Positions 1,336 to 43,263 of a stretch of 64,000 nt of DNA are shown piece after piece (within the stretch, counting starts at the first letter, position 1; each line of letters begins with the position of its first letter). The notes beneath the pieces were generated by a model, which did no database searches, was not told the origin of the DNA, and was given only the letters and a program-made list of their open reading frames with translations. The position numbers were made by a program, and so were the translations under genes. Source of the stretch: an uncultured delta proteobacterium (GTDB taxonomy: Bacteria; Desulfobacterota; RBG-13-43-22); the NCBI GenBank assembly GCA_963790475.1, contig CAWBOS010000006.1:160001-224000 (forward strand), given 5' to 3'.

Positions 1336-1343
1336 TAAAGGAC

Positions 1344-3208: not shown

Positions 3209-3221
3209 ATTCGAGTACAAG

Positions 3222-4227: not shown

Positions 4228-4233
4228 TAAATA

Positions 4234-13963: not shown

Positions 13964-13966
13964 AAA

Positions 13967-20929: not shown

Positions 20930-21066
20930 TTTGTGGTCTCTTTGGTCATTTGGTCTATTTAGTTCCTTTGGTCTTTTAGTCTATTCAGTCAAAGGACTAG
21001 ACGACTTATAAAACCGAACAGACCAAACAGACTAAACAGACAAGACAGACCAAATAGACTAAACAG
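20930..21066. repeat. 9-mer repeat hairpin upstream of four-helix-bundle gene 1
   Basis: TTTGGTCTN array then AGACCAAAC/AGACTAAAC array running up to the start codon. Confidence 0.9.
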
Positions 21067-21432
21067 ATGACCAAAATTATTCGCTTTGAAAATCTGGATT
21101 GCTGGCAACAAGCCCGGAGATTGGTCAAGGAGATCTATAAGATTTCTAAAGGAAAAGCATTTTCAAAAGATTTCAGGTTGGTTGGGCAAATCCAAGGATC
21201 AGCAATTTCTGTAATGGCCAATATTGCTGAAGGGTTTATCCGTAAGTCGGATAAAGAGTTTATCCAATTCTTATTCATCGCTCTTTCATCTGCTGCTGAG
21301 GTTCAAAGTCATTTATATGTTGCCTTGGATCAAGACTATATCCGTGATGAGGAATTTAATACATTATATAAGCAGACTGAAGTAACAGCAAAAATGATTT
21401 CCGGATTGATCAAGTATCTCCGAAAAAAATAA
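21067..21432 (+). CDS. Four-helix-bundle protein (23S rRNA IVP/Avd-like family)
   Basis: FENLDCWQ..QIQGSAISVMANIAEG..FIQFLFIALSSAAEVQSHL. Confidence 0.9.
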   Translation: MTKIIRFENLDCWQQARRLVKEIYKISKGKAFSKDFRLVGQIQGSAISVMANIAEGFIRKSDKEFIQFLFIALSSAAEVQSHLYVALDQDYIRDEEFNTLYKQTEVTAKMISGLIKYLRKK

Positions 21433-21439
21433 TACCGTC

Positions 21440-21605
21440 CTTCAGTCTTTTTGGTCTATTTTGTCTATTCAGTCAGTAAGGCTAAGGGGCTGAAAAAACC
21501 AAAAAAACCAAAAAGACCAGATAAACCAAACGACAAAAAAGACCAAATAGACCAAACAGACTAGATGACCAAACAGACTAAACAGACGGAATAGACCAAA
21601 CAGAC
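21440..21605. repeat. 9-mer repeat hairpin downstream of four-helix-bundle gene 1
   Basis: ttggtctat tttgtctat tcagtc ... gaccaaata gaccaaaca gactagat gaccaaaca gactaaaca up to the DegT ATG. Confidence 0.9.
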
Positions 21606-22793
21606 ATGAAGATTCCTTTTTTAGATCTAAAAGCCCAATACCTCTCCATCAAACCGGAGATAGATGGCGCCCTCCAGGAAGTAATAGACGATACCGCCTT
21701 TGCCGGGGGACCTTTCGTGGCCCGGTTTGAGAAGGCCTTCGCCGAATTCTGCGGATGCCAAGAGGCCATCGGAGTGGGCAGCGGGACCGAGGCCCTGTGG
21801 ATGGTCCTGCTGGCCCTGGGCGTAGGCCCCGGCGATGAAGTCATTACCGTGCCCAACACCTTCATTGCCACGGCCGAGGCCATATCATTTTGCGGGGCCA
21901 CTCCGGTCTTTGTGGATGTCGAGGAACGCACCTGTAACCTCGATCCCAACAAACTGGAAGACTTCCTTAAAAAACAGGATAAAGGATCGAGGATAAAGGA
22001 TAAAGATGACTCCTCGAACCTCGCTCCTCAGTCCTCCGGCCTTGGCCGCTTGAAGGCCGTGATCCCGGTTCATCTTTACGGTCAGCCGGCCGATATGGAC
22101 CCCATCCTTGAATTGGCTCAAAAATACGGATTGTTTGTCGTTGAGGACGCCTGTCAGGCCCACGGTGCGGAGTATAAGGGAAAGCGGGCCGGGGTCTTAG
22201 GGTCGGCTGCCGGGTGCTTCAGCTTCTATCCCGGAAAGAATCTGGGGGCCTACGGGGAGGCCGGGGCGGTGACCACCAATGATAAAGCTCTCGCTGATCG
22301 GATCCGCATCTTCCGGGATCATGGACAGCCTAAGCGGTATTACCATGACGTCGTGGGTTGGAACGGCCGCATGGACGGGTTCCAGGGAGCGGTCCTGGGA
22401 GTAAAGCTTAAATACCTCGACGAATGGAATAAGGGAAGAAGGGAAAACGCCAAACGATATAATAAATACTTGTCTGGCATAGAGGGGATCATCCTCCCTG
22501 GGGAAGCGGACTATGCCTGCCACGTCTATCACATCTATCCCATCAGGGTTAAAAACCGGGATCGGGTCATGGAGGCCTTAGTGGAAAAAGGGATTAATTG
22601 TAACATACACTACCCAGTGCCTATCCATCTCCAGAAGGCCTATGAATTTCAGGCGCACCGATTGGGTGACTTCCCGATCTCTGAAAAAATTGCTTCAGAG
22701 CTTCTGTCCCTTCCTATGTTCCCGGAGCTGACCGAGGAACAAATCGTCTATGTGGCCGACTCATTAAAAACCATCTTGGAGGAACGAGGATAG
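21606..22793 (+). CDS. DegT/DnrJ/EryC1/StrS sugar aminotransferase with repeat-derived loop
   Basis: IPFLDL, SGTEAL, PVHLYGQ, EDACQAHG, SFYPGKNLGAYGE. Confidence 0.93.
   Translation: MKIPFLDLKAQYLSIKPEIDGALQEVIDDTAFAGGPFVARFEKAFAEFCGCQEAIGVGSGTEALWMVLLALGVGPGDEVITVPNTFIATAEAISFCGATPVFVDVEERTCNLDPNKLEDFLKKQDKGSRIKDKDDSSNLAPQSSGLGRLKAVIPVHLYGQPADMDPILELAQKYGLFVVEDACQAHGAEYKGKRAGVLGSAAGCFSFYPGKNLGAYGEAGAVTTNDKALADRIRIFRDHGQPKRYYHDVVGWNGRMDGFQGAVLGVKLKYLDEWNKGRRENAKRYNKYLSGIEGIILPGEADYACHVYHIYPIRVKNRDRVMEALVEKGINCNIHYPVPIHLQKAYEFQAHRLGDFPISEKIASELLSLPMFPELTEEQIVYVADSLKTILEERG
21976..22040. repeat. In-frame 7-mer hairpin inside DegT
   Basis: aggataa aggatcg aggataa aggataa ... tcctcga acctcgc tcctcag tcctcc. 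Confidence 0.8.
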
Positions 22794-22862
22794 AGGAAAA
22801 AGGTTCGAAGAACGAGGTTCCGAGGTAAAAGGATTAAGGTAAAAGGAGAAGGGATAAGGCAA
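22785..22862 (+). repeat. Left arm 7-mer array (AGGNNNN) before four-helix-bundle gene 2
   Basis: aggatag aggaaaa aggttcg ... aggttccg aggtaaa aggatta aggtaaa aggagaa gggataa. Confidence 0.85.
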
Positions 22863-22867
22863 AGAGC

Positions 22868-23236
22868 GTGGAATTTGAGAATTTAGAGGTTTGGAAAAGA
22901 GCGGTAAGACTGAGTGCCAATATATACAAAGAATTGGCTATGCTAAAGGATTTTGGTTTTCGCGATCAGATAACTCGGGCAGGATTATCCGTCCCAAGTA
23001 ATATTGCCGAAGGATTTGAGCGAGGGTCACAGAAAGAGTGCGTTGTATTTCTATCCTATGCCAAGGGATCCTTAGGGGAGTTGAGGACTCAGATCTATAT
23101 CGGAATGGCCATCGGCTATATTGACCAGGTTACCGGAAATGAATGGATCAAAGAAGCAAAAGAACTTGCCTCCATGTTGGGGGGACTTATAAAGACCAAA
23201 CGTAATTTTATCCAAACACAATCCAAAAGCAAATGA
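22868..23236 (+). CDS. Four-helix-bundle protein (23S rRNA IVP/Avd-like family)
   Basis: FENLEVWK..DQITRAGLSVPSNIAEGFER..FLSYAKGSLGELRTQ. Confidence 0.92.
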   Translation: MEFENLEVWKRAVRLSANIYKELAMLKDFGFRDQITRAGLSVPSNIAEGFERGSQKECVVFLSYAKGSLGELRTQIYIGMAIGYIDQVTGNEWIKEAKELASMLGGLIKTKRNFIQTQSKSK

Positions 23237-23249
23237 ATATGGCATTTTC

Positions 23250-23365
23250 ACCCTTTATCCTCGATCCTTTCTCCTTTATCCTAGAACCTCGCTCCTCAAA
23301 CCTGGTCAAACTCAACAAACCCAACCAATCCACCCAATCAGCTATCAGCAATGAGCCATGAGCTA
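23250..23365 (+). repeat. Right arm 7-mer array (NNNNCCT) followed by 9-mer and AGCTATG-type units
   Basis: ttatcct cgatcct ttctcct ttatcct agaacct cgctcct caaacct; then aactcaaca aacccaacc; then agctatc agcaatg agccatg agcta. Confidence 0.85.
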
Positions 23366-24391
23366 AGGATTATTAATCCGTTAGATATTCCCGACTGGGA
23401 TGAGCAGGTTCTTCGGCTCCCTAATTATTCTTTCTTCCACTCCGCAGCGTGGGCAAAGGTCCTTTCAGAAGCATATAAATACAAACCGACCTATTTTACC
23501 TTCTTTGAAGATAATAAGCTGACCGCTCTGTTACCCGCGATGGATGTAAACAGCATATTGACGGGCCACAGAGGAATATCACTCCCCTTCACTGATTTTT
23601 GTGAACCTATTGCAGATAGTAACCTGAATTTTCGGACTTTATTTGAACATGCAGTATCCCATGGGAAAAAAAGCGGATGGAAGTATATCGAACTTCGTGG
23701 TGGTCAGACTTTTTTACCGGACACTGTTCCATCCCAAACTTTTTTAGCCCATACCATGGACCTCTTTCCTGATGAAAAAAAAATAATGAACAACTTTCGG
23801 GACAGTACCAGGCGTAATATAAAGAAGGCTATCACCGAGGGGGTGACGGTAAACATCCTCAATACAAGGGAAGCGGTAAAAGAGTTTTGCAGATTGAACT
23901 GTCTTACCAGAAAGGAGCATGGACTGCCACCGCAGCCAGGAAAGTTTTTTCAGGCAATATATAAACACATTATATCAAAAGGGCATGGATTTGTGGCTCT
24001 TGCCTATTTTCAAGGAAAGGCCATAGCGGGAAATATCTATTTTCATTTTGGTGAAAAAGCGGTTTATAAATATGGAGCCTCAAACAAAACCTGGCAGCAT
24101 TTAAGAGCCAGCAACCTTGTGATGTGGGAGGCAATTAGGTGGTATTGTCGAAAGGGGTGTGAACAAATGCATTTCGGAAGAACCGAAGAGGATCATCAGG
24201 GGCTAAGACAATTCAAGATGGGCTGGGGGGTGCAGGAACATGCTGTCAGCTATTCAAAATATGATTTGCGAAAAGGCAATTTTGTTAAGCAAAAAAACAA
24301 GGTTACATTTTTTCAAAATTCAATTTTTTGCAGGATGCCCGTTCCTTTATTGAAAATTACCGGTTCTTTGTTTTATGGACACATGGCATAA
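23351..24391 (+). CDS. FemAB-like GNAT protein (XrtA/PEP-CTERM-associated type)
   Basis: SLPFTDFC, RRNIKKA, HGLPPQP, YKYGAS, FGRT..GLRQFKMGWG. Confidence 0.85.
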   Translation: MSHELRIINPLDIPDWDEQVLRLPNYSFFHSAAWAKVLSEAYKYKPTYFTFFEDNKLTALLPAMDVNSILTGHRGISLPFTDFCEPIADSNLNFRTLFEHAVSHGKKSGWKYIELRGGQTFLPDTVPSQTFLAHTMDLFPDEKKIMNNFRDSTRRNIKKAITEGVTVNILNTREAVKEFCRLNCLTRKEHGLPPQPGKFFQAIYKHIISKGHGFVALAYFQGKAIAGNIYFHFGEKAVYKYGASNKTWQHLRASNLVMWEAIRWYCRKGCEQMHFGRTEEDHQGLRQFKMGWGVQEHAVSYSKYDLRKGNFVKQKNKVTFFQNSIFCRMPVPLLKITGSLFYGHMA

Positions 24392-24430
24392 AGGTGCGAG
24401 GTCAATCGAATCAATGCGCGAGGGTGAAAG

Positions 24431-24688
24431 ATGATTGATAAAAATCAAATTAGATTCTTTATTCAGGACGAAATCATGAAGGAAGGGAGTCTCGATAATT
24501 TTGAGGATTCAGACTCATTGGTTGAGACAGGGATTATTGATTCTCTTGGAATTCAGATTCTGTTGGCTTTCCTTGAGCAAACTTATTCAGTTCATATTTC
24601 TGATGATGAACTAATACCGGAGAATTTTGAGACTATTGAAGCTATTTCCGAATTTGTTTCCCGTAAAATTTCAAAGTCAGGTTCTTAA
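24431..24688 (+). CDS. Stand-alone acyl/peptidyl carrier protein
   Basis: GIIDSLG phosphopantetheine motif, ENFETIEAI. Confidence 0.9.
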   Translation: MIDKNQIRFFIQDEIMKEGSLDNFEDSDSLVETGIIDSLGIQILLAFLEQTYSVHISDDELIPENFETIEAISEFVSRKISKSGS

Positions 24689-24747
24689 AGAAGATGGGTT
24701 AAGCAAGAATGAAAGTACGTTACAGATCATAAGGGAATAGATTTGCC

Positions 24748-25380
24748 ATGTTGTCCCATATTAGAATGCGTCTTTTTCATTCAGTTGAGACTATAGTTAA
24801 TAAGGGTTTCCCCTTTTTTTGTAAGGAAATTGTATTTATTAATAGAACATGTATCTTGTTAGAAAAAGGATTAAAAGGTTTTGTGCCTCCCCGGGTCAAT
24901 CGCAACCATTCCGATTTGGTATTGATTGAAATTAATTCAGATAATGTTGATAGATACTTTTTTCAATCAAGGACGAGACGTTTAAAAGCAATTGGATATG
25001 TTAAGAAAGGTTATCATGGGTATGGGATTGTTAGAGATAAAAAAATCATAGGAGATATTTGGTGTTTTATGCAAAACAGTTCTCCAAAAATTCATCCTGA
25101 CCTAAAATGGCTTGACATTAAATGCGCTCCGAATGAATGTTATTCATTTGATATGTATCTAAGTCTTGAAGAAAGAGGGGGTGGCAACTTGGCGGCTTTT
25201 CTTGAAAATGCCTTGTTTTACGATCTTCAAAGGAAAGGTTATGAGAGGATCTATGGTTACGTATGGGCGGATAACTTTCCTGCCCTTTGGGCCCATAGAG
25301 TAGTTAAATGGAAAGAGAAGAAAAAATTTGTGGTAAATCGGTTTCTAAATTTTAAAAAAAAAGCTAATAAAAGTGAATAA
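24748..25380 (+). CDS. GNAT-fold protein
   Basis: YSFDMYL..ERGGG..GYERIYGYVWADNFPA. Confidence 0.65.
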   Translation: MLSHIRMRLFHSVETIVNKGFPFFCKEIVFINRTCILLEKGLKGFVPPRVNRNHSDLVLIEINSDNVDRYFFQSRTRRLKAIGYVKKGYHGYGIVRDKKIIGDIWCFMQNSSPKIHPDLKWLDIKCAPNECYSFDMYLSLEERGGGNLAAFLENALFYDLQRKGYERIYGYVWADNFPALWAHRVVKWKEKKKFVVNRFLNFKKKANKSE

Positions 25381-25412
25381 GTGTTTTGAACCTTATCAAA
25401 TGAGGGTAAGCT

Positions 25413-26408
25413 ATGAATCAACTTGATATTCCCATGGTCCCACGACGCAAAGAAACATTACCAATAGTTTATGGAGATACTCCTTCTTTTTTGGGAGTGC
25501 CTGTTCTTGATGCAGAATCACAGCAAAAGGATTTAGATGTTATATTCATGGGTGTTCCCTGGGAGGGGACCATAACCTGGGGTTCTTTCACGGGATGCGA
25601 ACTCGCACCGCGAGTTATCAGACATGCCGCAGCCAGATATGGCGGTTTTCTTCCTGAATATGAATTAAACCTTTTTGATTATCTTAATCTTGCGGATATT
25701 GGTGATATATCGGTTAGTCCTAATACTCCCGCGGAGACCATGAAAAATATTTTTACCGCAGCTCAATCTATATATAAAAACAATAGCGTTCCCTTTACTC
25801 TTGGCGGGGACCATTCCATTAGTCCTGAGATTGTGAAAGCTTTGAGTGAATGTAAAGAGGGGGATATAGGCATAATTCATTTTGATGCCCATCTGGATAA
25901 TGCTAAGAAATTTGGAAAAGACCGTTTTCCCAGATGTGGTCCTCTTCACAGGATTGCGCAGATTCCAAAAGTAAGAAAGAAAAGTATTGTCCATGTCGGC
26001 ATAAGAGGGCCAAGGAATTCTCCATCTCAACTCGAGTATGCTCGGCAGATGGGAGCCAAGGTCTTTCATATGGGGGAGGTACGGAATCGGGGGATGGAAG
26101 CGGTTATTAGTGATGCGATTAATATTGCTCATGAGAAAACCAAACATGTCTATGTTACTATCTGCAGCGACTGTATAGACGCGGGATATAACCCTGGAGG
26201 GCCGGCAGATTTCAATGGACTTTTTCCCTATGAGTTATTCTCATCTCTTTACCAACTTGGAAAAACAGGGATATCCGGTCTTGATTATGTAGAGATTTAC
26301 CCGAATCAAGACCCTCAGTCATTTTCTGCCCATCTTGCTGCTTGGGCGATTATTTATGCGTTAGTTGGAATGGCGTCTAACAAAAAGAGTCAAAAAGGAG
26401 ATTATTAG
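25413..26408 (+). CDS. Ureohydrolase (agmatinase/arginase family), non-canonical active-site motifs
   Basis: GVPWE, LGGDHSI, HFDAHLD, VGIRG; second metal motif reads CSDCID. Confidence 0.85.
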   Translation: MNQLDIPMVPRRKETLPIVYGDTPSFLGVPVLDAESQQKDLDVIFMGVPWEGTITWGSFTGCELAPRVIRHAAARYGGFLPEYELNLFDYLNLADIGDISVSPNTPAETMKNIFTAAQSIYKNNSVPFTLGGDHSISPEIVKALSECKEGDIGIIHFDAHLDNAKKFGKDRFPRCGPLHRIAQIPKVRKKSIVHVGIRGPRNSPSQLEYARQMGAKVFHMGEVRNRGMEAVISDAINIAHEKTKHVYVTICSDCIDAGYNPGGPADFNGLFPYELFSSLYQLGKTGISGLDYVEIYPNQDPQSFSAHLAAWAIIYALVGMASNKKSQKGDY

Positions 26409-26409
26409 C

Positions 26410-27555
26410 GTGGATTTCTTGTTGAAAGACGACCAGATTAAACTAAAAGAGTCCGTCATTAATTTTGTGAAGCGTTCGCTGAATGATGGGGCTTACGAAC
26501 GCCGTAACAGCGAGGAGTTCTATTGGGATGGGTGGAAGAAATGTGCAGATTTTGGGATACTGGGGTTGCCCATGCCGCAGAAGTATGGAGGATTAGAAAT
26601 GGACTTGATGGGATGCGTGGCTGCCATGGAAGGATTCGGTTATGCTTCCAAGGATCCCGGATTGCTTTTCTCTATAAACACTCATATTTGGACTTGTGAA
26701 TTTCCCATTTTAAAGTTCGGTTCCGAAGAACAAAAAGAGAAATACCTTAGGGGGTTAATAAAAGGTTCTATAATTGGCGGACATGCAATGACCGAACCGG
26801 ATTCCGGTTCCGATGCTTTCAGCCTCAGGTGCAAAGCAATACGCGATGGCAACAAGTATATTCTTAATGGAACAAAGATGTTCATTACCAATGCACCTAT
26901 CGCCGATATTCTCCTTGTTTTTGCCCGGATCGATGATCGAAAAGGATTTGCCGGAATCTCGGTATTCATTGTGGAAAAGGATTTTCCTGGATTTTCCATC
27001 GGCAAACCGCTCAAGATGATGGGCCTCGAAGACTGTCCTCTTGGTGAAGTCATCTTGCGGGAATGCGAAGTACCCGTTGAAAACAGATTGGGGAGAGAAG
27101 GGGCAGGATCTGCGGTATTCAATTCGGAAATGGAACAAGAACGAAGCTGCCTGTTTGCCACCCACCTGGGAAGTATGGAAAAGATTCTGGAAGACTGCAT
27201 CGAATATGCCAAAACACGCCATCAGTTTGGTAAACCTATTGGGAGTAATCAATCGATTTCACATAAGATAGCCGAAATGAAGGTGCGGGTTGAAATGTCC
27301 CGACTTATTCTCTACAGGGTTGCATGGATTAAAACCATCGGTCAGCGCGCTCCTATGGAAGCTGCCATCGCTAAATTATTCATAAGCGAGAGTTATGTGG
27401 CTACATGTATGGATGCTCTTCAGATCCATGGTGCCTATGGTTATTCGAGAGAGTTTAGTATTGAAAGAAGTCTTCGGGACGCGATCGGATCAAAGATATA
27501 TTCGGGGACTTCCGAGATCCAGAGGAACATCATAGCAACTTTTTTAGGTCTTTAG
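26410..27555 (+). CDS. Acyl-CoA dehydrogenase family, L-prolyl-carrier-protein dehydrogenase-like (PltE/RedW/CloN3 type)
   Basis: WKKCADFGILGL, GLLFSINTHIW, MTEPDSGSDA, QIHGAYGY, IYSGTSEIQR; GTG 26410 after AAGGAG. Confidence 0.8.
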   Translation: MDFLLKDDQIKLKESVINFVKRSLNDGAYERRNSEEFYWDGWKKCADFGILGLPMPQKYGGLEMDLMGCVAAMEGFGYASKDPGLLFSINTHIWTCEFPILKFGSEEQKEKYLRGLIKGSIIGGHAMTEPDSGSDAFSLRCKAIRDGNKYILNGTKMFITNAPIADILLVFARIDDRKGFAGISVFIVEKDFPGFSIGKPLKMMGLEDCPLGEVILRECEVPVENRLGREGAGSAVFNSEMEQERSCLFATHLGSMEKILEDCIEYAKTRHQFGKPIGSNQSISHKIAEMKVRVEMSRLILYRVAWIKTIGQRAPMEAAIAKLFISESYVATCMDALQIHGAYGYSREFSIERSLRDAIGSKIYSGTSEIQRNIIATFLGL

Positions 27556-27576
27556 CCCCGGTTACAATAAGATTAT

Positions 27577-29190
27577 ATGTATTCATATCTTTTACACCAT
27601 CTTCTGACAAATACGGCCAGACAGAATCCGGATAAAAAGGCTGTTATCTTCAAAGATAAGTCGTTGACCTACTCAGAGCTGGATGCCCAGAGTGATCAAT
27701 TTGCCGCAACTTTGTCCGGGTTAGGCATAAGAATGGGAGACCGGGTCGGCATTATTCTCGGCAAATCCATTGAGGCCATCATCAGCATTTTTGGGATACT
27801 GAAGGCCGGAGCGGCCTATGTGCCTGTAGATTATCAGTCGCCGATGAGTCGGACACAACACATATTGAAGAATTGCGGCATCAGCGCTGTGATCTCATCT
27901 CATACAATGGCAGAGAAAATAATAAAAGACCCTGACCCGGAATTGTCTCTAAGAACAATCATAGTTACTGGAACCGACTCGCGAATCCTTGGCCATGGAG
28001 TAGGAATTAAATCGATATCTTTTGAGACGATATTGAATGAGGGAAAAAAAGATGATCCTCAAGTCGAAATGGCTGATGTCAGTCCTGCCTACATCCTGCA
28101 CACCTCCGGTTCAACGGGGTTGCCGAAGGGTGTCGTAATTTCACACCTGAACGCCCTTTCCTTTGTCAACATGGCCGCAGAGTTCTTTCACATAGGTATA
28201 GACGATAGGTTCGGCAATGTCGCGCCCCTTCACTTTGATCTTTCAGTGTTCGATATATTCGTTGCTGTTAAAGCCGGAGCGGCTATCATCTTAGTCCCGG
28301 AATATCTTACCGCTTTTCCGATAAGGTTAGCCGAGTATATAGAAAATCAGAGGATCACCGTATGGAATTCGGTTTCTTCGCTCCTATCGATGCTTGCCGA
28401 AAAAGGAGGGCTCGAAAGAGTTTCTCTGGAATCTTTGCGCATCTTACATTTTTCCGGAGAAATCCTGCCGATCAAATATCTCCGGATACTTAAGAATTGT
28501 ATGCAGAATGCGAAGTTCTATAATATCTACGGACAGACCGAAGCAAATTCCTCTGTGTACTATCAAGTCAGGGAACTCCAAGAAAATGACCATTGGAAGA
28601 TACCCATCGGCAGACCGTTTCCAAACTTTGAAGTGTTCATCATGGGGGAGGATGGCAGTGAGAAGACTGCTCCTGGCGATGAAGGGGAATTGTATGTCAA
28701 GAGCTCCACGGTAGCCATAGGTTACTGGGGCCGGGAGGAGGAAACGCGGGAGAAGTTCGTGTCAGACCCGCGAGACCTCTTCGGAAGGCAACGATGTTAC
28801 AAAACCGGAGATCTCGTCCGCATTGACGACGATGGCAATTACGTGTTCGTTGGCCGCAAGGACCACATGATAAAAAGCAGAGGCTATAGAATAGAGTTGG
28901 CGGAGATCGAGGCTGTTCTCAACAGCCACCCGCTCATTAGACAGGCCGTGGTAACAGCAATTCCTGATGAGCTAATCGGAAACAGGCTCATCGGCCACGT
29001 TTCATTAGTGGAACGAGGGGTATTGAGCAAAAATGATCTTTACAGGTTCTGCAGCAGTCCTTTGCCAAAGTATATGATACCCGGGGTTTTCAAGTTTCAC
29101 GATGGGTTGCCCTTGAGTTCAACGGGTAAGGTTAACAGAAAGGCTTTAGAAGGGCAGGACTTGAATGATTCGAAAGTAGAGGTAGGGTAA
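27577..29190 (+). CDS. Stand-alone amino acid adenylation enzyme (PltF/RedM/DltA-like)
   Basis: LKAGAAYVP, YILHTSGSTGLPKG, APLHFDLSV, NIYGQTE, YKTGD, GYRIELAEIE, STGKVNRKAL. Confidence 0.9.
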   Translation: MYSYLLHHLLTNTARQNPDKKAVIFKDKSLTYSELDAQSDQFAATLSGLGIRMGDRVGIILGKSIEAIISIFGILKAGAAYVPVDYQSPMSRTQHILKNCGISAVISSHTMAEKIIKDPDPELSLRTIIVTGTDSRILGHGVGIKSISFETILNEGKKDDPQVEMADVSPAYILHTSGSTGLPKGVVISHLNALSFVNMAAEFFHIGIDDRFGNVAPLHFDLSVFDIFVAVKAGAAIILVPEYLTAFPIRLAEYIENQRITVWNSVSSLLSMLAEKGGLERVSLESLRILHFSGEILPIKYLRILKNCMQNAKFYNIYGQTEANSSVYYQVRELQENDHWKIPIGRPFPNFEVFIMGEDGSEKTAPGDEGELYVKSSTVAIGYWGREEETREKFVSDPRDLFGRQRCYKTGDLVRIDDDGNYVFVGRKDHMIKSRGYRIELAEIEAVLNSHPLIRQAVVTAIPDELIGNRLIGHVSLVERGVLSKNDLYRFCSSPLPKYMIPGVFKFHDGLPLSSTGKVNRKALEGQDLNDSKVEVG

Positions 29191-29201
29191 TCAGGTCGAA
29201 C

Positions 29202-32207: not shown

Positions 32208-32214
32208 CTGCCTG

Positions 32215-32481: not shown

Positions 32482-32647
32482 TTATCCAGGGTCTAAAAGC
32501 AGGAAGATTAGATGTGCAAGATGTTTTGGCAATTCTATCAAATATATTCAGATATCTTTACAAGCAGTAGGACCCTATGTCATGCCGAAGCCTGGATAAA
32601 AGCAGGCGAGACATTACGGGATTCATAATAGAAGGGAGGGATAGATC

Positions 32648-33460: not shown

Positions 33461-33490
33461 AACTAAACTTTCACCTTAATCTTGCTTACG

Positions 33491-33526
33491 GTAAATTCCC
33501 CGCAGCTTGCTGCGTGGTAGTTCATT
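33491..33526. repeat. Short palindromic remnant resembling IS200/IS605-type or REP end
   Basis: CCCCGCAGCTTGCTGCGTGG hairpin followed by TAGTTCATT. Confidence 0.55.
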
Positions 33527-33632
33527 GCAGCGATAAACGAGTATTCGAAAAAATATTGACGTAAAAGGCAAGGAGACCACTTTTCTTATCTTGACCCGTT
33601 TGGAACAGTACAATAGAGTACTGAAAAATTTC

Positions 33633-34445: not shown

Positions 34446-34636
34446 GATAATTATTATAATAATGAAACCTATGCTTATTTTCAAGAGATCTATCGATTCG
34501 TCGCTGCAGTTTTCTGAATACGAGAATTCTCGTAGCTACGGTAAGCCGTTGAAAATAATCAAAATAAGTCCAGTCGTTCTCTGGAACCATCTATTAAAAT
34601 AAATCATGTGAAATTGCTATGTTGACGGGGAATCAT

Positions 34637-35371: not shown

Positions 35372-35375
35372 AACC

Positions 35376-36596: not shown

Positions 36597-36620
36597 TGAC
36601 ACTGGAATACAGACACATCC

Positions 36621-37493
36621 ATGAAACCCCAGACAAAGAACAAAAACGCAAATTTCGTCACACCTCTCCAGTTTCATGAGGAAAAGAATAACGTCAACAC
36701 TTATTTCGCGTCTGAATCTTCGGGCTGGAACGATATCTATCAAAAAGAGGATGTCTATTCCATAATCCATCAAGACCGCCGTGCGATCGCGTTTCAATAT
36801 TTCCAGGAATTGTCGCTGCCGCGGGATGCCCGCATACTGGAAATTGGGTGCGGCGCCGGTTTAACCTCGGTGGATATCGCCCGTCAGGGTTATGTCGTCC
36901 AAGCGGTTGATAGCGTGGAAGCCATGATTGACCTGACTCGTAAGAATGCGCTCAAATTTGGAATGGAAAAACAAATTCACGCCAGCGTGATGGATGTGTA
37001 TAACCTACAGTTTTCAAAACAAACCTTTGCCCTGGTCATAGCCCTGGGGGTGGCTCCTTGGCTTGCCGACCTGAACAGGGCTCTCAAAGAAATCTCAAGG
37101 GTGCTAACTCCCGGGGGGTATGTCCTGATGAATGTGGATAACCGCTATCGCCTCAATCACCTGCTAGACCCGTTTTATTTTCCCAGGCTCGCTGGTTTGA
37201 AAGAGCGGTTGAGGGATTTCCTAGAAAAGGCTAGCGTGTGCAAAACTTCCAGCATTCCCCGCCCTAAAAGACACAGCATCAAAGAGTTTGAGTCCCTGCT
37301 CGAGTCCGCCAGTCTGGTCAAACTAAAACACCGGATGCTTGGGTTTGGCCCATTTACCTTTTTAAAGATTCGCCTGTTCCCGAACTCAGTTGGAATCAAG
37401 CTTCATCGGTACCTACAAAACGAGGCCGACAAGGGAACCCCCCTCCTCCGTTCGACCGGGTCACAATACCTGGTTCTGGCGCATAAAATGTAA
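36621..37493 (+). CDS. Class I SAM methyltransferase
   Basis: LEIGCGAG, RVLTPGG; similar to 33633-34445. Confidence 0.88.
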   Translation: MKPQTKNKNANFVTPLQFHEEKNNVNTYFASESSGWNDIYQKEDVYSIIHQDRRAIAFQYFQELSLPRDARILEIGCGAGLTSVDIARQGYVVQAVDSVEAMIDLTRKNALKFGMEKQIHASVMDVYNLQFSKQTFALVIALGVAPWLADLNRALKEISRVLTPGGYVLMNVDNRYRLNHLLDPFYFPRLAGLKERLRDFLEKASVCKTSSIPRPKRHSIKEFESLLESASLVKLKHRMLGFGPFTFLKIRLFPNSVGIKLHRYLQNEADKGTPLLRSTGSQYLVLAHKM

Positions 37494-37526
37494 CTTGTTA
37501 TTCCTTTTTTCATTCAACCAACCAAA

Positions 37527-38837
37527 ATGAACTCAATAATTTCTCTCAAGACCGGGGTCTGGTACGGCGATAGGCAAATTAATTTGCCCATCCCCTCGAG
37601 TTGGGATGTAAAGGTCCTTTGGCCGGCCACCCCCCCCCCTCTGACGGCGGAAGAGTTATTGAGCACCCTGGAACATCCAATAGGCAAAGCGAGGCTGACT
37701 GAAGTCTGCCGGAAGAAATCCCGACCCTTGATTCTCGTTGATGACCTGAACCGCCCTACCCCCACAGCCGAAATCATGCCGCATTTGCTAAAAATGATGA
37801 GCACGGTCGGCATCCCCTCCGAAGCGATCAAAATCCTCATGGCTACCGGTACGCATGGCCAACCGGAACCAGACGCTGTTCTCAAAAAGGTAGACGCAGC
37901 ATTCGCTAACGATCAACTACAGGTACACAACTGCTTTGCGGACACTATAAAAATTGGGGTTACCTCCTCCGGTATACCTGTATTTGTGAACAAAATCGTC
38001 ATGGAAAGCGATGTGGTCATTGGCATCAGCGGAATTTACCCCAACCACACCGCCGGTTTTGGCGGCGGGTCCAAGCTTGCTCTAGGCGTGTTGGGGATTC
38101 AAACCATCTACCATTTGCACTTTCGTCACAAGTCGGCCGGCTGGGGGAATTTCTTTCCGGAGATGGGTTTCCGACGGGATCTGGATGAAATCGCCAGAAT
38201 GATTGGTATGGAATTTAATATCTCCCTGATTATTGACGCTAACCGGCAGATCGTTCGGATGTATTGTGGCGACCCAATCGCCTACTTCCCTCGAGCAGTT
38301 TTATATTACCAGCAGGTGTTCCGTACCCAGCTCCCCGGCGATGCAGATGTCGTCATCTCAAATGCCTACCCCAACGATTGTTCACTCACATTTACGCGGA
38401 TGAAGGGATTTGTTCCGCTTGCTCTGTGCACCCCAGCAGCGACTAGAATTGCTATTTCTGCATGTCCTGAGGGGCTAGGGCTTCATAATATCTGGCCGTT
38501 TGTAAACGTGCCGCCGCGTCACCGGTTGAAACATATCCTGCGGGTTTTATCCGTCCTGACTTTAAAAGAAATCCTGGTGAGGGGGTTTCGCACCGCAATC
38601 TCCCCACTCACGAAAAGGCTTACCAACCGGCAGAAGTCAGGGAACCTAAAGGCGCTCCAATCCGTATGGCTGTACCAGACGTGCGGCTCAGAAATTAATC
38701 TACCAGCAAATGTGCCCGGAATCCATATCACATCGGATTGGCAAAAAATCCTTGAGGCTGTTCTTCGAGAACAGTCGAATCGAAATCAGCTCAAGGTTTT
38801 GGTTTATCCGTGCGCTTTTCTTCAACTGTTCGAATAA
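37527..38837 (+). CDS. LarA-family (nickel-pincer) hydroxyacid racemase/epimerase
   Basis: DDLNRPTP, ATGTH, AGFGGGSK, MKG motifs. Confidence 0.8.
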   Translation: MNSIISLKTGVWYGDRQINLPIPSSWDVKVLWPATPPPLTAEELLSTLEHPIGKARLTEVCRKKSRPLILVDDLNRPTPTAEIMPHLLKMMSTVGIPSEAIKILMATGTHGQPEPDAVLKKVDAAFANDQLQVHNCFADTIKIGVTSSGIPVFVNKIVMESDVVIGISGIYPNHTAGFGGGSKLALGVLGIQTIYHLHFRHKSAGWGNFFPEMGFRRDLDEIARMIGMEFNISLIIDANRQIVRMYCGDPIAYFPRAVLYYQQVFRTQLPGDADVVISNAYPNDCSLTFTRMKGFVPLALCTPAATRIAISACPEGLGLHNIWPFVNVPPRHRLKHILRVLSVLTLKEILVRGFRTAISPLTKRLTNRQKSGNLKALQSVWLYQTCGSEINLPANVPGIHITSDWQKILEAVLREQSNRNQLKVLVYPCAFLQLFE

Positions 38838-38856
38838 TAATTTCTCCCGGAGGATT

Positions 38857-41001
38857 ATGACTATGAGAGTTTGTATGATTGCATATACCTTCTATGAAAA
38901 CGACAATCGAGTAAGACGATATGCCGATGCCTTGGTAAAAAGAGGGGATCATGTAGATGTGGTAGCGTTGCGAAATCCCGAGTTCGCAGAGCAGGAGAAC
39001 TTTCATGGAGTTAACATATACCACATTCAAGCAAGAATCCAAAATGAGAAGCATAAGCTGTTGTATTTGGCAAAGCTACTACTTTTTCTGGTTAACTCCG
39101 GAATATTTGTCACAAAGCAACACTTGAAAAATCCATATGATGTGCTTCATATCCATAATGTCCCGGACTTCTTGGTATTTTCCGGTTTGATACCAAAGCT
39201 AAAGGGTGCAAAAGTCATTCTCGATATTCATGACATAGTCCCTGAGTTTTACGCCTCCAAATTCAAAGTCTCCAAGGATTCTCTGGTTTGTAAAGTGTTG
39301 ATGCAGATCGAGAAACTGTCGATAGCTTTTTCGGACCACGTAATTATCTCCAATCATATTTGGGAGCAAAGACTCCTCTCACGATCTATCTCGAAAGAGA
39401 AGTGTTCCGTTTTTCTCAATTACCCGGACCCCGTACTATTCTATCCGCGGAAAGTGGAGAGAGAGGCGAATAAACTAATTTTCTTATACCCCGGAACCTT
39501 GGCGTGGCACCAGGGTTTGGACGTTGCTATCAAGGCATTTGCTCTGGTAAGAGACGAGCTTGAATCTGCTGAAATGCATGTCTATGGTGGTGGCCCTGAA
39601 AGGAGAAGACTCGAGCTACTCGCTACTGAACTTGGGATAAGTCGACAAGTTGTTTTCAAGGGATCATTTCCTATAGATGAGATTGTCGATGTTATGGCGA
39701 GGTCGAACATTGGGGTGGTCCCTAAAAGAAATGATTCGTTTGGAGGGGAGGCTTTTAGCACAAAGATATTTGAGTTCATGTCTCTCGGGGTTCCCGTGAT
39801 TGCTTCGAGGACTAGGATCGACTCTTACTATTTCGATAAGTCTGTCATCCAGTTCTTCGAGCCGGGAGACGAGAATGATTTGGCGAGATGTATGATTCTG
39901 CTCGGAAAAAACAAGGGGCTACGAGATGGCATCGCAGACCGGGCCCTGGAATTTATCAAGCAATACTCGTGGGATAAAAAGAAACAAGCCTATTTTGAGT
40001 TGGTGGATGGGTTGGTCCGGAAGAATGGCGTTGTGAAAACCTCTGGGGGACAGGCAACTAGTAAGCTGCTGGGGGTTTATTATTTGATGAAACCATTCAT
40101 ACCGAGGCGCCTGCAGATCCAGATACGGAGAAGGGTTGCGTCACGAAAGAGTATCTCCAATCGACATATTTGGCCCATTAACGAGCAAACGTCAAAAAAA
40201 CCTGAAGCATGGCGCGGGTGGCCCGATGACAAACGTTTTGCCCTGGTCCTTACCCACGACGTGGAAGGAGCCAAGGGTGTCCCGAATTGTCTCAGGTTGG
40301 CCGATCTCGAGCAAGATCTTGGCTACCGGTCTTCTTTTAACTTCGTGGCCCTGGACTACGAGATTTCGAAGGAATTGATGGATAGTTTACGGGCTCGGGG
40401 GTTCGAGATTGGCCTGCACGGTCTCTATCATCATGGAAATTTGTTCAAATCCAGAAGGGCTTTTCAAAAGCAAGTTCCTCGGATTAATGAATTTTTGAAG
40501 AAATGGAATGCGGCGGGCTTCAGATCCCCCAGTATGTATCATAATTTGGAATGGATCTGTGATTTGGATATTGAGTATGATGCCTCCACATTCGATACGG
40601 ACCCATTCGAACCTCAACCGGACAGCGCGGGTACGATTTATCCGTTTATCATATCAAGGAACGGATCGAAAAGCGGATTCGTGGAGCTGCCCTATACACT
40701 TCCGCAAGACCATCTGTTGTATGTGGTGATGAGAGAAAGAACTCCCTCAATCTGGAAGCAAAAACTGGATTGGATTGCCGAGAAAGGCGGTCTGGCCTTA
40801 ATAATTACTCATCCTGATTACATAGACTTCGCTGATAAGAGAAAGCCTGTGGATGCCTATCCGGCCAATTATTATGTTGAATTTCTCCAATATATCAAAG
40901 ACCGGTACGATGGGCAGTACTGGCATGCGCTTCCGAAAGATGTCGCCCGGTTCATACGGGAATCAGAAACAGCAGCTCAGTCGTCTATAAATGGAAAATA
41001 A
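38857..41001 (+). CDS. GT4 glycosyltransferase fused to a NodB-type deacetylase-like domain
   Basis: DNRVRR, HNVPD, LDIHD, STKIFEFM; C-terminal LTHDVE, EIGLHG, GFRSP, ITHPDY. Confidence 0.85.
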   Translation: MTMRVCMIAYTFYENDNRVRRYADALVKRGDHVDVVALRNPEFAEQENFHGVNIYHIQARIQNEKHKLLYLAKLLLFLVNSGIFVTKQHLKNPYDVLHIHNVPDFLVFSGLIPKLKGAKVILDIHDIVPEFYASKFKVSKDSLVCKVLMQIEKLSIAFSDHVIISNHIWEQRLLSRSISKEKCSVFLNYPDPVLFYPRKVEREANKLIFLYPGTLAWHQGLDVAIKAFALVRDELESAEMHVYGGGPERRRLELLATELGISRQVVFKGSFPIDEIVDVMARSNIGVVPKRNDSFGGEAFSTKIFEFMSLGVPVIASRTRIDSYYFDKSVIQFFEPGDENDLARCMILLGKNKGLRDGIADRALEFIKQYSWDKKKQAYFELVDGLVRKNGVVKTSGGQATSKLLGVYYLMKPFIPRRLQIQIRRRVASRKSISNRHIWPINEQTSKKPEAWRGWPDDKRFALVLTHDVEGAKGVPNCLRLADLEQDLGYRSSFNFVALDYEISKELMDSLRARGFEIGLHGLYHHGNLFKSRRAFQKQVPRINEFLKKWNAAGFRSPSMYHNLEWICDLDIEYDASTFDTDPFEPQPDSAGTIYPFIISRNGSKSGFVELPYTLPQDHLLYVVMRERTPSIWKQKLDWIAEKGGLALIITHPDYIDFADKRKPVDAYPANYYVEFLQYIKDRYDGQYWHALPKDVARFIRESETAAQSSINGK

Positions 41002-41066
41002 CAAGCACCTCTATCTTGGTCTGATTGACCAATTGGTCAAGTAAATCCAAAAATATGGTATAAAAA

Positions 41067-41432
41067 ATGAAGGAAACCGAGGGGAAGAACAAGAAGTACG
41101 ATTTAGAGGACCGGACTTTTGAATTTGCACGAGAGGTTATTGCTTTTGTCAATAAACTGAAAAAAACGTTGGCGAATATTGAAATTGGAAAACAACTGAT
41201 CCGGGCCGCCGGTTCAGTTGGAGCAAATTATATCGAGGCAAATGAAGGGCTGAGCAGGAAGGATTTCATTATGAGAATAAAGATCTGCCGAAAGGAAGCC
41301 AAGGAAGCCGGATACTGGATTCGTCTGATCGATTGCGAAGAAGGTCTGGAAAGTTCTAGAGAAAAGTTGGTGAGCGAAAGCAAAGAGTTAACTAAAATAT
41401 TTGGAGCAATAATTATTAGATGCAAATCCTAA
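41067..41432 (+). CDS. Four-helix-bundle protein (23S rRNA IVP/Avd-like family)
   Basis: YDLEDRTFEFA..QLIRAAGSVGANYIEANE..ICRKEAKEAGYW. Confidence 0.92.
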   Translation: MKETEGKNKKYDLEDRTFEFAREVIAFVNKLKKTLANIEIGKQLIRAAGSVGANYIEANEGLSRKDFIMRIKICRKEAKEAGYWIRLIDCEEGLESSREKLVSESKELTKIFGAIIIRCKS

Positions 41433-41466
41433 ATCGCGAATTCTAAACTCAAAATAAGGATTTCTT

Positions 41467-41706
41467 ATGATTAGAAATTATACCGCTAAATATATAAAAA
41501 TTAGCAAAGGGTATATGGGACAGTTAATTGAGTGGCCGGAGGTCATCACTGAAGGCCGGGATATTGAAGAATGCCGTCGAATGCTGCGGGATGCCCTAAA
41601 ACAAATGGTTTTAGCCTATAAGCAGATACATAAAGAAATTCCCATTGGCGACGGTTTGATCGAACAGCTCCCCGTGGATATCCAAGATGTCTATCAAACG
41701 GCGTGA
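41467..41706 (+). CDS. hicB: HicB-family antitoxin (short)
   Basis: YMGQLIEWPEVITEGRDIEECRRMLRDAL. Confidence 0.85.
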   Translation: MIRNYTAKYIKISKGYMGQLIEWPEVITEGRDIEECRRMLRDALKQMVLAYKQIHKEIPIGDGLIEQLPVDIQDVYQTA

Positions 41707-41875
41707 CCTAATCAAATATCTTGAAGAAAATGGATTTCGTTTTATAAGAGAAGGTGGGAGTCATTCTATCTATTCGAATGAGAACAAAACCATCCCGGTT
41801 AAAAGGCATCGTTCTTTAGATAGAATAACCGCCAATGAACTTTGCAAGCAAGCCGGAATAATCCCAAAATTTTGA
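41687..41875 (+). CDS. hicA: HicA-family toxin
   Basis: KRRDLIKYLEENGF..REGGSHSIY..PVKRH..CKQAGI. Confidence 0.88.
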   Translation: MSIKRRDLIKYLEENGFRFIREGGSHSIYSNENKTIPVKRHRSLDRITANELCKQAGIIPKF

Positions 41876-41961
41876 TGTCAGATTTTTGGATTGGGGTATT
41901 TGAATATTAGTATGGTCTATTATTTTCGGATTTCGAATTTGGGATTTAGAGTTTGACCAGA

Positions 41962-43263
41962 ATGCGTCTCGATCGTCTATTAACCCTATATCTATTTGGT
42001 CCTCTGGCTCGCCTCCGCAAACCCAGGGGTCTGCGAATCCCCATCCTCATGTATCACAGTATTTCCGATGACCCGGAAACCGGCCATCCGTACTATTGGA
42101 TCAACACATCCCCGGCATGCTTCGCCGAACACATGAAATTTCTTTATGATAATGGATATCAGGTAATTCCCCTCTCAACCGCGGTCGAAATGATCCGGAT
42201 GGAAAAAACTAATTCTAAAATTCTAAATTTTAACCTCGAACCTCGAACCTCGAACCTCGAACCTGGATCGAACCTCGAACCTCGAACCTCGAACCCCGAA
42301 AAGGGATTAACCAACAAACCAAACAAACTTAACGAACTCAATAACCCAATAGACCCAATCAACCAGCCAACCAATCAATCCGATCAATTAAATGGACTGG
42401 ATAGACCAAACCAACAAAATAGACCCAATGAACTCAAGGAACCCGAAGAACCCAATGAACTCAACCAACCCAATAGACTCAAAGAACCAGAGAAACCCCG
42501 CTACGTGGTCTTAACCTTTGACGATGGCTATCTCGACTTCTACACCGAAGCCTTTCCCATCCTCCAGCAATACGGTTTCCACGCAACCGTGTTTCTTCCG
42601 ACGATCTTCATCGATGGGAAAAGACCAGGCCTTCGGGGTAAGGAGCACCTCAACTGGGATCAGGTTCGCGAACTTCGTACCGTCGGCATTACTATCGGCT
42701 CTCACACCTGCAGCCACCCACAGCTTTACGATTTGCCGTTAGATAAAATTGAGCAGGAACTCCACCGGTCAAAAGAATCAATCGAATTTCATCTGAATCA
42801 AACAACCAACAAAGAAGTTAAGCAATCAGCCCAGTCAACCAATAAGCCCAATAAACTAAATGAATCCTATGAGCTATCAGCTATGAGCTATAAGCCATTT
42901 CCACCCGATCACCCGATCACCCTGTCTTCCGTGGATTCTTTTTGTTATCCTTATAAATTTCCCGGGCAAAACAAAGCTTTTCGAACTTTGCTATCCGATT
43001 CCTTGAAGAAAACAGGCTATAACAACTGCGTTACGACGAGGATAGGATCATACAATACCGCGGAGGATATTTTGTGTATGAAACGGTTGCCTATGAATAG
43101 GGCCGACGACCATTGGCTTTTTCGTGCGAAGCTTCAGGGAGGCTATGATTGGCTTGCGTGTCTTCAATCCCTGACTAAAAAAACCAACAGGGGGAGCAGA
43201 GTTGGCCGTCCGGTAGGTCAAATGATCGAGAAAGTCCAAACAAAGGCAGGGGTAAGAGCATGA
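41962..43263 (+). CDS. Polysaccharide deacetylase (NodB/IcaB-like) with two long repeat-derived in-frame insertions
   Basis: PILMYHSI, LTFDDGY, IGSHTCSH, FCYPY; low-complexity inserts between conserved blocks. Confidence 0.88.
   Translation: MRLDRLLTLYLFGPLARLRKPRGLRIPILMYHSISDDPETGHPYYWINTSPACFAEHMKFLYDNGYQVIPLSTAVEMIRMEKTNSKILNFNLEPRTSNLEPGSNLEPRTSNPEKGLTNKPNKLNELNNPIDPINQPTNQSDQLNGLDRPNQQNRPNELKEPEEPNELNQPNRLKEPEKPRYVVLTFDDGYLDFYTEAFPILQQYGFHATVFLPTIFIDGKRPGLRGKEHLNWDQVRELRTVGITIGSHTCSHPQLYDLPLDKIEQELHRSKESIEFHLNQTTNKEVKQSAQSTNKPNKLNESYELSAMSYKPFPPDHPITLSSVDSFCYPYKFPGQNKAFRTLLSDSLKKTGYNNCVTTRIGSYNTAEDILCMKRLPMNRADDHWLFRAKLQGGYDWLACLQSLTKKTNRGSRVGRPVGQMIEKVQTKAGVRA
42208..42495 (+). repeat. 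In-frame stacked repeats: AATTCTA-type, AACCTCG x9 (7 perfect), then 9-mer array
   Basis: Directly visible; encodes NLEPRTS.. and NKPNKLNELN.. Confidence 0.92.
42795..42925 (+). repeat. Second in-frame stacked repeat insert (AATCAACC-like, AGCTATG, CACCCGAT units)
   Basis: tatgagc tatcagc tatgagc tataagc; cacccgat cacccgat caccctgt. Confidence 0.85.

Follow-up and report, generated by a model that had tools for sequence, protein, structure and literature searches.

PF05635 four-helix-bundle genes between inverted short-repeat arms in a surface-polysaccharide locus and in other bacterial operons

A 64,000-nt stretch of DNA from an uncultured delta proteobacterium of the Desulfobacterota (hereafter the window; positions 160001-224000 of contig C6 in G000, a 6.34-Mb genome of 20 contigs) contains three small genes of the PF05635 family, all within a single co-directional surface-polysaccharide locus that spans 11.8-45 kb of the window. 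PF05635 is an abundant family, structurally solved since 2006 and homologous to Avd, a protein of diversity-generating retroelements (DGRs). Here we describe the short tandem repeats that surround these genes, and follow genes and repeats through the genome, its relatives and other phyla. What recurs is a cassette of gene plus arms: the gene, of about 120 residues and with no evident promoter, encodes a basic, Avd-like protein, lies between inverted repeats and sits co-directionally in an operon spacer.

All three genes exceed the cut-offs of both PF05635 (33.8 bits) and TIGR02436 (24 bits), gene 2 also passing that of the NF008912 subfamily (173.4 bits vs. 124), and they are divergent, genes 2 and 3 sharing 40% and 16% identity, respectively, with gene 1. 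An AlphaFold2 model, built for gene 1 only of the three with 22 relatives, has a predicted local distance difference test (pLDDT) score of 95.4 and folds as an up-and-down four-helix bundle (helices at residues 11-27, 36-58, 62-88 and 94-120) like those of 2gsc and 2rld. Foldseek returned these two entries, Xcc0516 (2gsc) and BT_0352 (2rld), as the best PDB matches of the model (TM 0.8-0.9; 0.87-0.93 for 2gsc), followed by Avd (4dwl, TM 0.77-0.86; with the 8ub7 series, 0.7-0.86 overall); 2gsc (7.6e-36) and 2rld (1e-26) were also profile hits. Because both homologues have five chains per PDB entry, the proteins encoded here may also be pentameric.

At the first locus, a complete 9-mer hairpin of the AGACCAAAC type stands on each side of gene 1 (Table 1). 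The right arm of the upstream hairpin runs up to the start codon of the gene (Tandem Repeats Finder, TRF, places its two arrays at 20934-20989 and 21013-21067, and the arms were recovered as inverted pairs), and the 9-mer array of the downstream hairpin adjoins the start codon of the DegT gene. Gene 2 lies in the loop between an AGGNNNN array and its complement. The third locus is composite: one pair of arms (41044-41066 with 41870-41892) encloses gene 3, hicB and hicA, and a second (41423-41454 with 41924-41955) encloses hicBA only, the HicA and HicB-like profiles in adjoining, overlapping genes identifying a HicAB toxin-antitoxin pair inside the arms. An open reading frame (ORF) within terminal inverted repeats, the arrangement of an rRNA intervening sequence (IVS), is thus present for genes 1 and 2, and weakly for gene 3.

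Table 1. Genes, arms, hairpins and in-frame inserts of the window (positions are those of the window; a single number is the position given for a gene).
Feature	Position	Strand	Remarks
Gene-less hairpins	1337-1396, 3258-3290, 4242-4260		same kinds as those below
Wza-like exporter	11788		polysaccharide locus
Gene-less 9-mer hairpin and array	12444-12660	+	upstream of porin-like gene
Porin-like gene	12678-13963		polysaccharide locus; apparent frameshifts
Gene-less 9-mer hairpin	13966-14143	+	between porin-like gene and Wzz; units grade from AACCCAATA to AGACCAAAC type
Wzz	14161		polysaccharide locus
Initiating sugar transferase	17901		polysaccharide locus
GFO/IDH oxidoreductase	19283		polysaccharide locus
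Hexapeptide acetyltransferase	20456		polysaccharide locus
Hairpin 5' of gene 1	20930-21066	+	left arm ~20930-20990 (GTCTNTTTG type), right arm ~21013-21066 (AGACCAAAC type)
Gene 1, PF05635/TIGR02436 four-helix bundle	21067-21432	+	121 aa, isoelectric point (pI) 9.49; Pfam 119.1 bits, TIGR02436 114.4 bits
Hairpin 3' of gene 1	21441-21605	+	left arm 21441-21477, right arm = 9-mer array 21493-21605
DegT aminotransferase	21606-22793		polysaccharide locus
In-frame insert in DegT gene	21976-22040	+	AGGATAA array (TRF 21976-22005), then CCTCGNN-type sequence
Cassette 2, 5' arm	22782-22866	+	purine-rich AGGNNNN-type heptamer array
Gene 2, PF05635	22868-23236	+	122 aa, GTG start, pI 9.27; Pfam 108.8 bits, TIGR02436 103.7 bits
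Cassette 2, 3' arm	23243-23303	+	pyrimidine-rich NNNNCCT-type array
FemAB-like gene	23351		polysaccharide locus
Arginase-family, acyl-CoA and AMP-binding enzymes			after FemAB-like gene in locus order
Methyltransferases, glycosyltransferases, then ComA and ComB			polysaccharide locus, before GT4 gene
GT4 glycosyltransferase	38710		polysaccharide locus
Composite cassette 3, weak AT-rich 5' arm	41044-41066	+	pairs with 41870-41892: 23 nt, 83% complementary
Gene 3, PF05635, divergent	41067-41432	+	121 aa, pI 9.13; Pfam 53.1 bits, TIGR02436 71.5 bits
AAATCCN-type arm	41423-41454	+	pairs with 41924-41955: 32 nt, 75% complementary
HicB-like (UPF0150)	41467-41706	+	PF21748 27.8 bits (cut-off 27.3)
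HicA toxin	41687-41875	+	PF07927 52.2 bits
GGATTTN-type 3' arms	41870-41955	+	41870-41892 and 41924-41955; end at deacetylase start
Polysaccharide deacetylase	41953-43263		polysaccharide locus
In-frame insert in deacetylase gene	42211-42490	+	7-mer (AACCTCG) and 9-mer (ACCCAATGA-type) arrays (TRF)
Second in-frame repeat-rich stretch of deacetylase	42800-42925	+	CTATGAG and CACCCGAT arrays (TRF 42867-42895, 42902-42922)
Two GT2 glycosyltransferases			after deacetylase; end of polysaccharide locus

The layout was quantified with a flank score, the best local alignment between the 150 nt upstream of a gene and the 150 nt downstream after reverse complementation, for which 1786 crude ORFs of 90-200 residues from the same genome served as the null (mean 15.7, 99th percentile 24, maximum 53). 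An alternative statistic, the RNAduplex energy of the same 150-nt flanks, was dropped in favor of this score: governed mainly by large loops, it had no power to tell family genes apart from random sites. Gene 1 scores 44 and gene 2 scores 31. Thirteen PF05635 matches were found in the genome, ten of them above the Pfam cut-off; seven of these ten score at least 24 and an eighth 23, and family genes hold ranks 1, 2, 3, 5 and 6 among the 1786 small ORFs. Each copy has a different unit (TTCGGAG, GACACGG, TGATTGA, GGACTGA, CTATAGC, etc.), in keeping with an interpretation made earlier from the sequence of the window alone (hereafter the original prediction), which had proposed cassette-like elements each bracketed by arms of its own unit. 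Three of the 13 copies are fragments or frameshifted, and one such fragment still lies between arms (score 29).

This gene-in-stem layout holds across phyla. Among same-phylum relatives, 22 of 29 family genes (29 loci) score at least 24, with a median of 35. A cross-phylum set of 80 loci, found with the gene 2 protein, yielded 81 scorable genes (three others had flanks too short to score), of which 52 score at least 24, with period 7 dominant; it draws on Desulfobacterota, Gamma- and Betaproteobacteria, Bacteroidota, Planctomycetota, Acidobacteriota, Nitrospirota, Calditrichota, Cyanobacteria and others. Both neighbors share the orientation of the gene in 78 of 99 assessable cases, vs. 47% for crude small ORFs. 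The median arm is 30 nt long (range 12-75); on the 5' side it stops, at the median, 32.5 nt short of the start codon, and on the 3' side it starts 30 nt past the stop codon.

Within the genus, a cassette can be present, absent or replaced at one and the same junction. Between the hexapeptide-transferase and DegT genes, G000 carries gene 1, and G009 a family gene 64% identical to it, between two 9-mer hairpins whose four arrays are all of the AACCCAAGC/AACTCAAGN type, not AGACCAAAC; in G004 the same junction holds no family gene, only a 322-nt spacer ending in a AACCCAACA array. In G012, a gene 75% identical retains the CAGACCAAA unit of G000 in another gene context. The G004 spacer (G004:C34, ~8050-8375) also contains a GC-rich element of about 200 nt that appears structured.

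Arms keep their complementarity while the unit changes, and their sequence tracks the protein clade. In the 78 cassettes whose arms are good, the overlap of arm 5-mers is correlated with protein identity (Mantel test; 5 of 999 permutations as strong), and pairs at 65-80% protein identity show arm overlaps of 0.226 (5') and 0.190 (3') vs. 0.049 and 0.046 for distant pairs, although of the 45 pairs in this bin 38 belong to a single clade of 18 loci, with mostly NNNAAGG-like arms; the effect is nevertheless seen in six of seven clade components (five of the six small ones). The spacers between arm and ORF, in contrast, show no excess at the same identities (0.089 vs. a baseline of 0.103). As the arms are similar where the adjacent spacers are not, the arm word is conserved beyond what neutral co-inheritance would leave, though it is not strictly tied to clade.

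The arms also carry a strand bias. Relative to the direction of the gene, purines dominate the 5' arm in 56 of the 78 cassettes and pyrimidines in four, and in gene-less short-loop hairpins between co-directional genes the corresponding figures are 41 and six of 66. The bias in both settings suggests a strand-specific feature that probably acts at the level of the transcript.

Genome-wide, we used a strict array set (period 6-10, at least three copies, TRF score of at least 36) for all comparisons, since a looser threshold (score 30) is noisy, returning 43 arrays per 400 kb of shuffled sequence. The genome contains 431 strict arrays, 300 of them of period 7, and the shuffled sample none; the window holds 15, vs. 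4.4 expected from the density of the genome. An inverted partner within 2.5 kb, scoring above the 99th percentile of a random-window null, was found for 142 of the 431, and loops are shorter than 200 nt in 109 of these. Where a loop of 250-600 nt holds one ORF, that ORF is always a family gene. An attempt to map the units of the family genes one-to-one onto array families was abandoned: random 7-mers match a mean of six arrays when one mismatch, rotation and both strands are allowed, single linkage merged 299 of 302 arrays and left the test powerless, and at exact identity only some of the units find support.

Among the sampled genomes, gene-less hairpins and heptamer arrays are abundant only in those with the gene family. 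The sample comprises 20 genomes, with 60-400 kb examined in each except G000, which was examined whole. In the phylum of the window, period-7 arrays per 100 kb number 4.7, 9, 4, 12.1, 2.9 and 26.6 in family-bearing G000, G004, G017, G039, G021 and G034 (13, 11, 17, 6, 6 and 9 family matches, respectively), vs. 0.5 in G036 and G037 and zero in G022, G030 and G032, all without the family. Bacteroidota show the same division, with 8, 2, 2 and 5 in family-bearing G073, G084, G077 and G064 and zero in 60 kb each of G050, G055, G060 and G063 without it (a 4-kb sample of G054 carries no weight). Thus, all ten genomes with at least six family matches have 2-27 arrays per 100 kb, and all nine without the family, from the same two phyla, have 0-0.5. 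The twentieth, a gammaproteobacterium (Amphritea, G041), has one family gene and 0.5 arrays per 100 kb.

Three checks set out in the original prediction accordingly came out in its favor: protein clade and repeat are correlated, the repeats are rare in genomes that lack the family, and filled, empty and differently filled alleles of one junction exist. Its statement that the window contains neither rRNA nor a reverse transcriptase also stands, as an Rfam scan of the window gave no family match, hence no rRNA, and none of the nine RVT_1 matches of the genome lies inside the window or beside any PF05635 gene.

Several known systems invite comparison. The 23S IVS of Coxiella burnetii (PMC4990558) carries an S23p ORF inside a 28-bp stem, the 5' part of which consists of tandem heptamers of variable number, and is cleaved by RNase III at the first heptamer repeat; ORF-bearing rRNA IVSs are cited there from Leptospira and Salmonella as well, and family genes occur in rRNA insertions of candidate phyla radiation (CPR) bacteria (bioRxiv 10.1101/2024.02.27.582315). 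The cassettes described here resemble these IVSs in the protein family, in its position in the loop of a stem of terminal inverted repeats, in patchy occurrence and in the existence of ORF-less versions. They differ in location, lying between protein-coding genes of operons rather than in a helix of a 23S or 16S rRNA gene (at the window loci the flanks are protein-coding, and 20 sampled cassette loci contain no rRNA), in the several divergent paralogues per genome, each with another unit, and in both arms being whole arrays; RNase III cleavage, seen in Coxiella, is predicted here. A search of open-access main texts and bioRxiv turned up the layout in the Coxiella IVS paper and nowhere else; family genes have been reported in cas loci (PMC3936711) and in a Riemerella capsule locus (PMC13688083).

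Avd is a pentamer that binds nucleic acid and reverse transcriptase. The proteins encoded here share with it (4dwl, 8ub7 series) the four-helix-bundle fold and a basic character, and differ in lacking both a neighboring reverse transcriptase and template or variable repeats, and in scoring 17.1 bits against the Avd equivalog model NF033474, the cut-off of which is 80. Cyanobacterial short tandemly repeated repetitive (STRR) sequences are heptamer direct repeats. The TAACTGA repeats of marine Beggiatoaceae are likewise tandem 7-nt units, mostly intergenic and often ending just upstream of start codons (PMC4679880); the terms '23S' and 'four helix' do not occur in that paper. Both kinds resemble the arrays described here in their tandem 7-nt units, mostly intergenic position and confinement to certain lineages, but each has one dominant, direct unit, whereas the units here number in the hundreds and one strict array in three is matched by an inverted partner.

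In REPIN/RAYT systems, the REP-associated tyrosine transposases (RAYTs) lie beside their repetitive extragenic palindromic (REP) sequences. The closest working precedent is the Ssn nuclease with its NTS repeat, a pair of GIY-YIG single-strand nuclease and dispersed hairpin repeat that was found through two criteria, gene flanking and genome co-occurrence, and in which the repeat varies with the Ssn homologue and gene-less copies occur mostly in genomes carrying the gene (PMC11893778). Both criteria apply here as well: the repeat brackets family genes, and genomes rich in it contain the gene. The present system shares with Ssn/NTS and REPIN/RAYT a small gene that has a hairpin-forming repeat on either side, the repeat being dispersed in many gene-less copies too. 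It differs in that the protein is a non-enzymatic-looking helical bundle rather than a GIY-YIG or HUH enzyme, that the repeat consists of a short unit in tandem rather than a fixed motif of ~20-40 nt, and that specific binding or cutting of the repeat by the protein is putative, the indirect signs being arm k-mers that track protein identity and a median pI of 9.0 across 78 family members.

Taking these observations together, we assign a probability of roughly 55% to the reading that all loci are copies of an rRNA-IVS-type cassette, gene and arms together, riding host operons, with arms cut by RNase III and a protein that binds the repeats. On this proposal, the arms would pair into a 20-75-bp stem within the read-through transcript of the operon, and RNase III (its gene, rnc, is present in the genome) would cut the stem as in the homologous 23S rRNA cassettes, releasing a small mRNA and leaving the flanking cistrons usable, so that the insertion would be tolerated. 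The PF05635 pentamer would bind repeat nucleic acid, both from its own cassette and from copies without the gene, by analogy with the Ssn/NTS and RAYT/REP pairs; gene-less hairpins would mostly be decayed or miniature copies of cassettes, and slippage would let arrays grow, including in frame in tolerant loops of neighboring genes.

A number of results weigh against this reading. At the window itself, the original prediction placed each of three divergent family genes in a repeat context of its own; family membership holds for all three and bracketing for genes 1 and 2, but the arms of the third locus are weak, AT-rich and interleaved, the flank score of gene 3 alone (14) is within chance, and its arms are shared with HicAB. 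At the RNA level, mismatches in the arms comprise 87 G:U and 90 A:C pairs, and the absent wobble excess is unlike the prediction of selection on an RNA helix alone, while the fold of the whole 541-nt transcript of cassette 2 is no better than that of shuffles (z = -0.72). No mobility enzyme was identified for the cassette. Recognition of a repeat by its protein is strained by the differing units of the G000 and G009 orthologues, by the continuum formed by the 1397 distinct canonical units among 2165 loose arrays (vs. 13 family matches), and by the uneven abundance of the units elsewhere, TTCGGAG occurring exactly in 28 arrays and GACACGG in none. The 9-mer family of gene 1 is found, moreover, in spacers without a family gene, both in the same locus and in G004. 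Nor is the layout specific to the family, since genes encoding GxxExxY proteins (TIGR04256) have it at 11 of 16 scorable loci of relatives. These last points speak against a strict pairing of one protein with one repeat, as the original prediction had it; its interpretation as a whole is partly supported. Finally, the genomes behind the genome-level link are few and partly related, and Y1_Tnp matches co-occur with the family almost as well as the arrays do (32 of 34 relatives with the family vs. one of seven without it), so that a third factor, e.g. overall mobile-element load, could explain that link.

A broader proposal, which we regard as possible and advance tentatively, is that bacterial heptamer repeats have their trans-acting partners in the PF05635 proteins, with each paralogue binding, or helping to copy or move, the arrays of its own 7-nt word. 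The cassette would then be the autonomous form of a widespread family of elements, the gene-less hairpins and arrays would correspond to the STRR-type repeats of cyanobacteria, Bacteroidota, Desulfobacterota and others, and the classical rRNA IVS would be a special landing site. If true, the result would be a pairing of protein and repeat comparable in scale to REP/RAYT or Ssn/NTS, with a non-enzymatic, Avd-like fold as its basis.

The repeats might instead come first: made by the host through replication slippage and palindrome correction as 5'-untranslated or intercistronic elements, comparable to cyanobacterial STRR or to the TAACTGA repeats of Beggiatoaceae, they would offer loops in which selfish genes (the PF05635 genes, GxxExxY, HicAB) lodge harmlessly, the protein being unrelated to the repeats. 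That most hairpins are gene-less, that arrays adjoin start codons as the TAACTGA repeats do (PMC4679880), that the 9-mer family of gene 1 fills spacers without a family gene, and that unrelated cargo (GxxExxY, HicBA) occupies arms of the same kind would all be natural on this account. We nevertheless consider it unlikely, because the arms, unlike neighboring spacers, follow the protein clade through different phyla and contexts, which argues that the arms travel with the gene; stems of family genes are, furthermore, kept in array-poor genomes (in Amphritea a simple inverted repeat of 30 nt, scoring 50, forms the arms), and arrays are near-absent from all nine sampled genomes without the family.

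Quite unlikely, in our view, is a third explanation, in which a trans-acting enzyme, either a RAYT-type Y1/HUH transposase or the PD-(D/E)XK protein GxxExxY, spreads REPIN-like heptamer hairpins and the bundle gene is cargo or an accessory. The co-occurrence of Y1_Tnp with the family points in this direction and is repeated in Bacteroidota, where all four array-rich genomes have three or four Y1 genes, vs. one of four array-free genomes; the arms layout is also common to GxxExxY genes, and the window has a long Y1/HUH transposase-like gene (62996-63961; 321 aa, PF01797 E = 2e-12, with a C-terminal extension), directly after the stop codon of which visual inspection found a 9-mer hairpin of the AGACCAAAC family. 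Unlike RAYTs, however, the long Y1 genes of the genome are not flanked by dispersed repeat copies: none of five has a strict array within 200 nt, vs. six of 13 PF05635 matches and 8.6% of all ORFs. G036 (11 copies) and G060 (one copy) carry Y1_Tnp without the family, and both are array-poor. GxxExxY presence fits the arrays less well, as the gene was not found in array-rich G034 and G021 and was found in array-poor G037; in the genome of the window, moreover, only one of six GxxExxY genes has the layout. Hundreds of different units are, in any case, ill suited to one sequence-specific enzyme.

The last alternative, that the proteins are Avd accessories of DGRs or partners of a reverse transcriptase acting in trans, with arrays arising by reiterative reverse transcription, is very improbable and largely refuted, for although the fold is shared with Avd and PF05635 is the commonest family beside DGR reverse transcriptases according to PMC10053308, the Avd model and the positions of the RVT_1 genes speak against it, and RVT_1 follows neither the family (15 of 34 relatives that carry it) nor the arrays (none in array-rich G034 and G039, with the incompleteness of metagenome-assembled genomes as a caveat).

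If true, the preferred reading, of a gene-plus-arms cassette that rides host operons, would connect bacterial heptamer repeats, so far unexplained, with an orphan protein family; the arms are defined RNA or DNA substrates for defined proteins, and together with the natural filled and empty junctions and the genome-level association they make both family and repeats testable. For annotation, the small genes and low-complexity enzyme inserts would best be treated as intruders in polysaccharide operons and not as components of the pathway.

Repeats of the same kinds also occur in the window as gene-free hairpins (12444-12660 and 13966-14143) and as in-frame inserts in the DegT and deacetylase genes, as the original prediction had noted. 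The insert site in DegT is hypervariable and unalignable across G000, G004 and G009, each of which has a different mix of repeats; the G009 match is interrupted at residues 129-146, the insert site. The array in this insert is complementary to part of the 3' arm of cassette 2 (23243-23275, score 46). In the deacetylase, residues 73-179 (107 residues) stand opposite just 14 of the solved homologue 6dq3, leaving about 93 extra, and a search of 13 genomes from the genus (E <= 1e-20) turned up no orthologue. On the large contigs, 40 of 416 strict arrays lie inside ORFs of at least 200 residues, four of them in these two genes. Downstream of cassette 2, further arrays at 23307-23365 (CAACCAATC and ATCAGCT) cross the annotated start of the FemAB-like gene, the N-terminus of which may therefore be repeat-encoded, or its start miscalled.

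Some arrays extend over a neighborhood. At G000:C12:25150-26591, four TGATTGA-type arrays in alternating orientation occupy three consecutive spacers around the family gene at 25599-25955, and TTCGGAG arrays are similarly distributed at C13:463.7-472.3 kb, so that one unit family serves the whole neighborhood in each case. In the window, AAGGTAA/ACCTTAA heptamer arrays of alternating orientation (1337-4264) flank a FlpD-ferredoxin gene and two BadF/BcrA-type ATPase genes, with loops of 1865 and 946 nt; ordinary metabolic genes, too, can therefore lie between inverted arrays. At G000:C11:166300-170606, three near-identical GxxExxY genes stand in tandem with CTATGCT-type heptamer arrays and CCGTGNN repeats between them, and another GxxExxY gene (G000:C10:490956) is flanked by a direct repeat of ~95 nt with an internal palindrome.

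A search of five proteins against the PADLOC defense-system models gave no meaningful match, the sole one being a JetA fragment (E = 0.001). The porin-like gene, with 9-mer hairpins on either side, is split over three overlapping frames, with a BBP2_2 match in its last part, and is therefore probably frameshifted or a pseudogene. At one locus of a relative (L041:2562-2806), two matches to the small RNA Acido-Lenti-1 (43.8 and 43.5 bits) lie on opposite strands ~700 nt from a family cassette. A longer tandem repeat, unrelated to the short ones, lies at 59325-60293 of the window (273-nt unit, 3.6 copies, 74% matches) and resembles a protein domain present in several copies.

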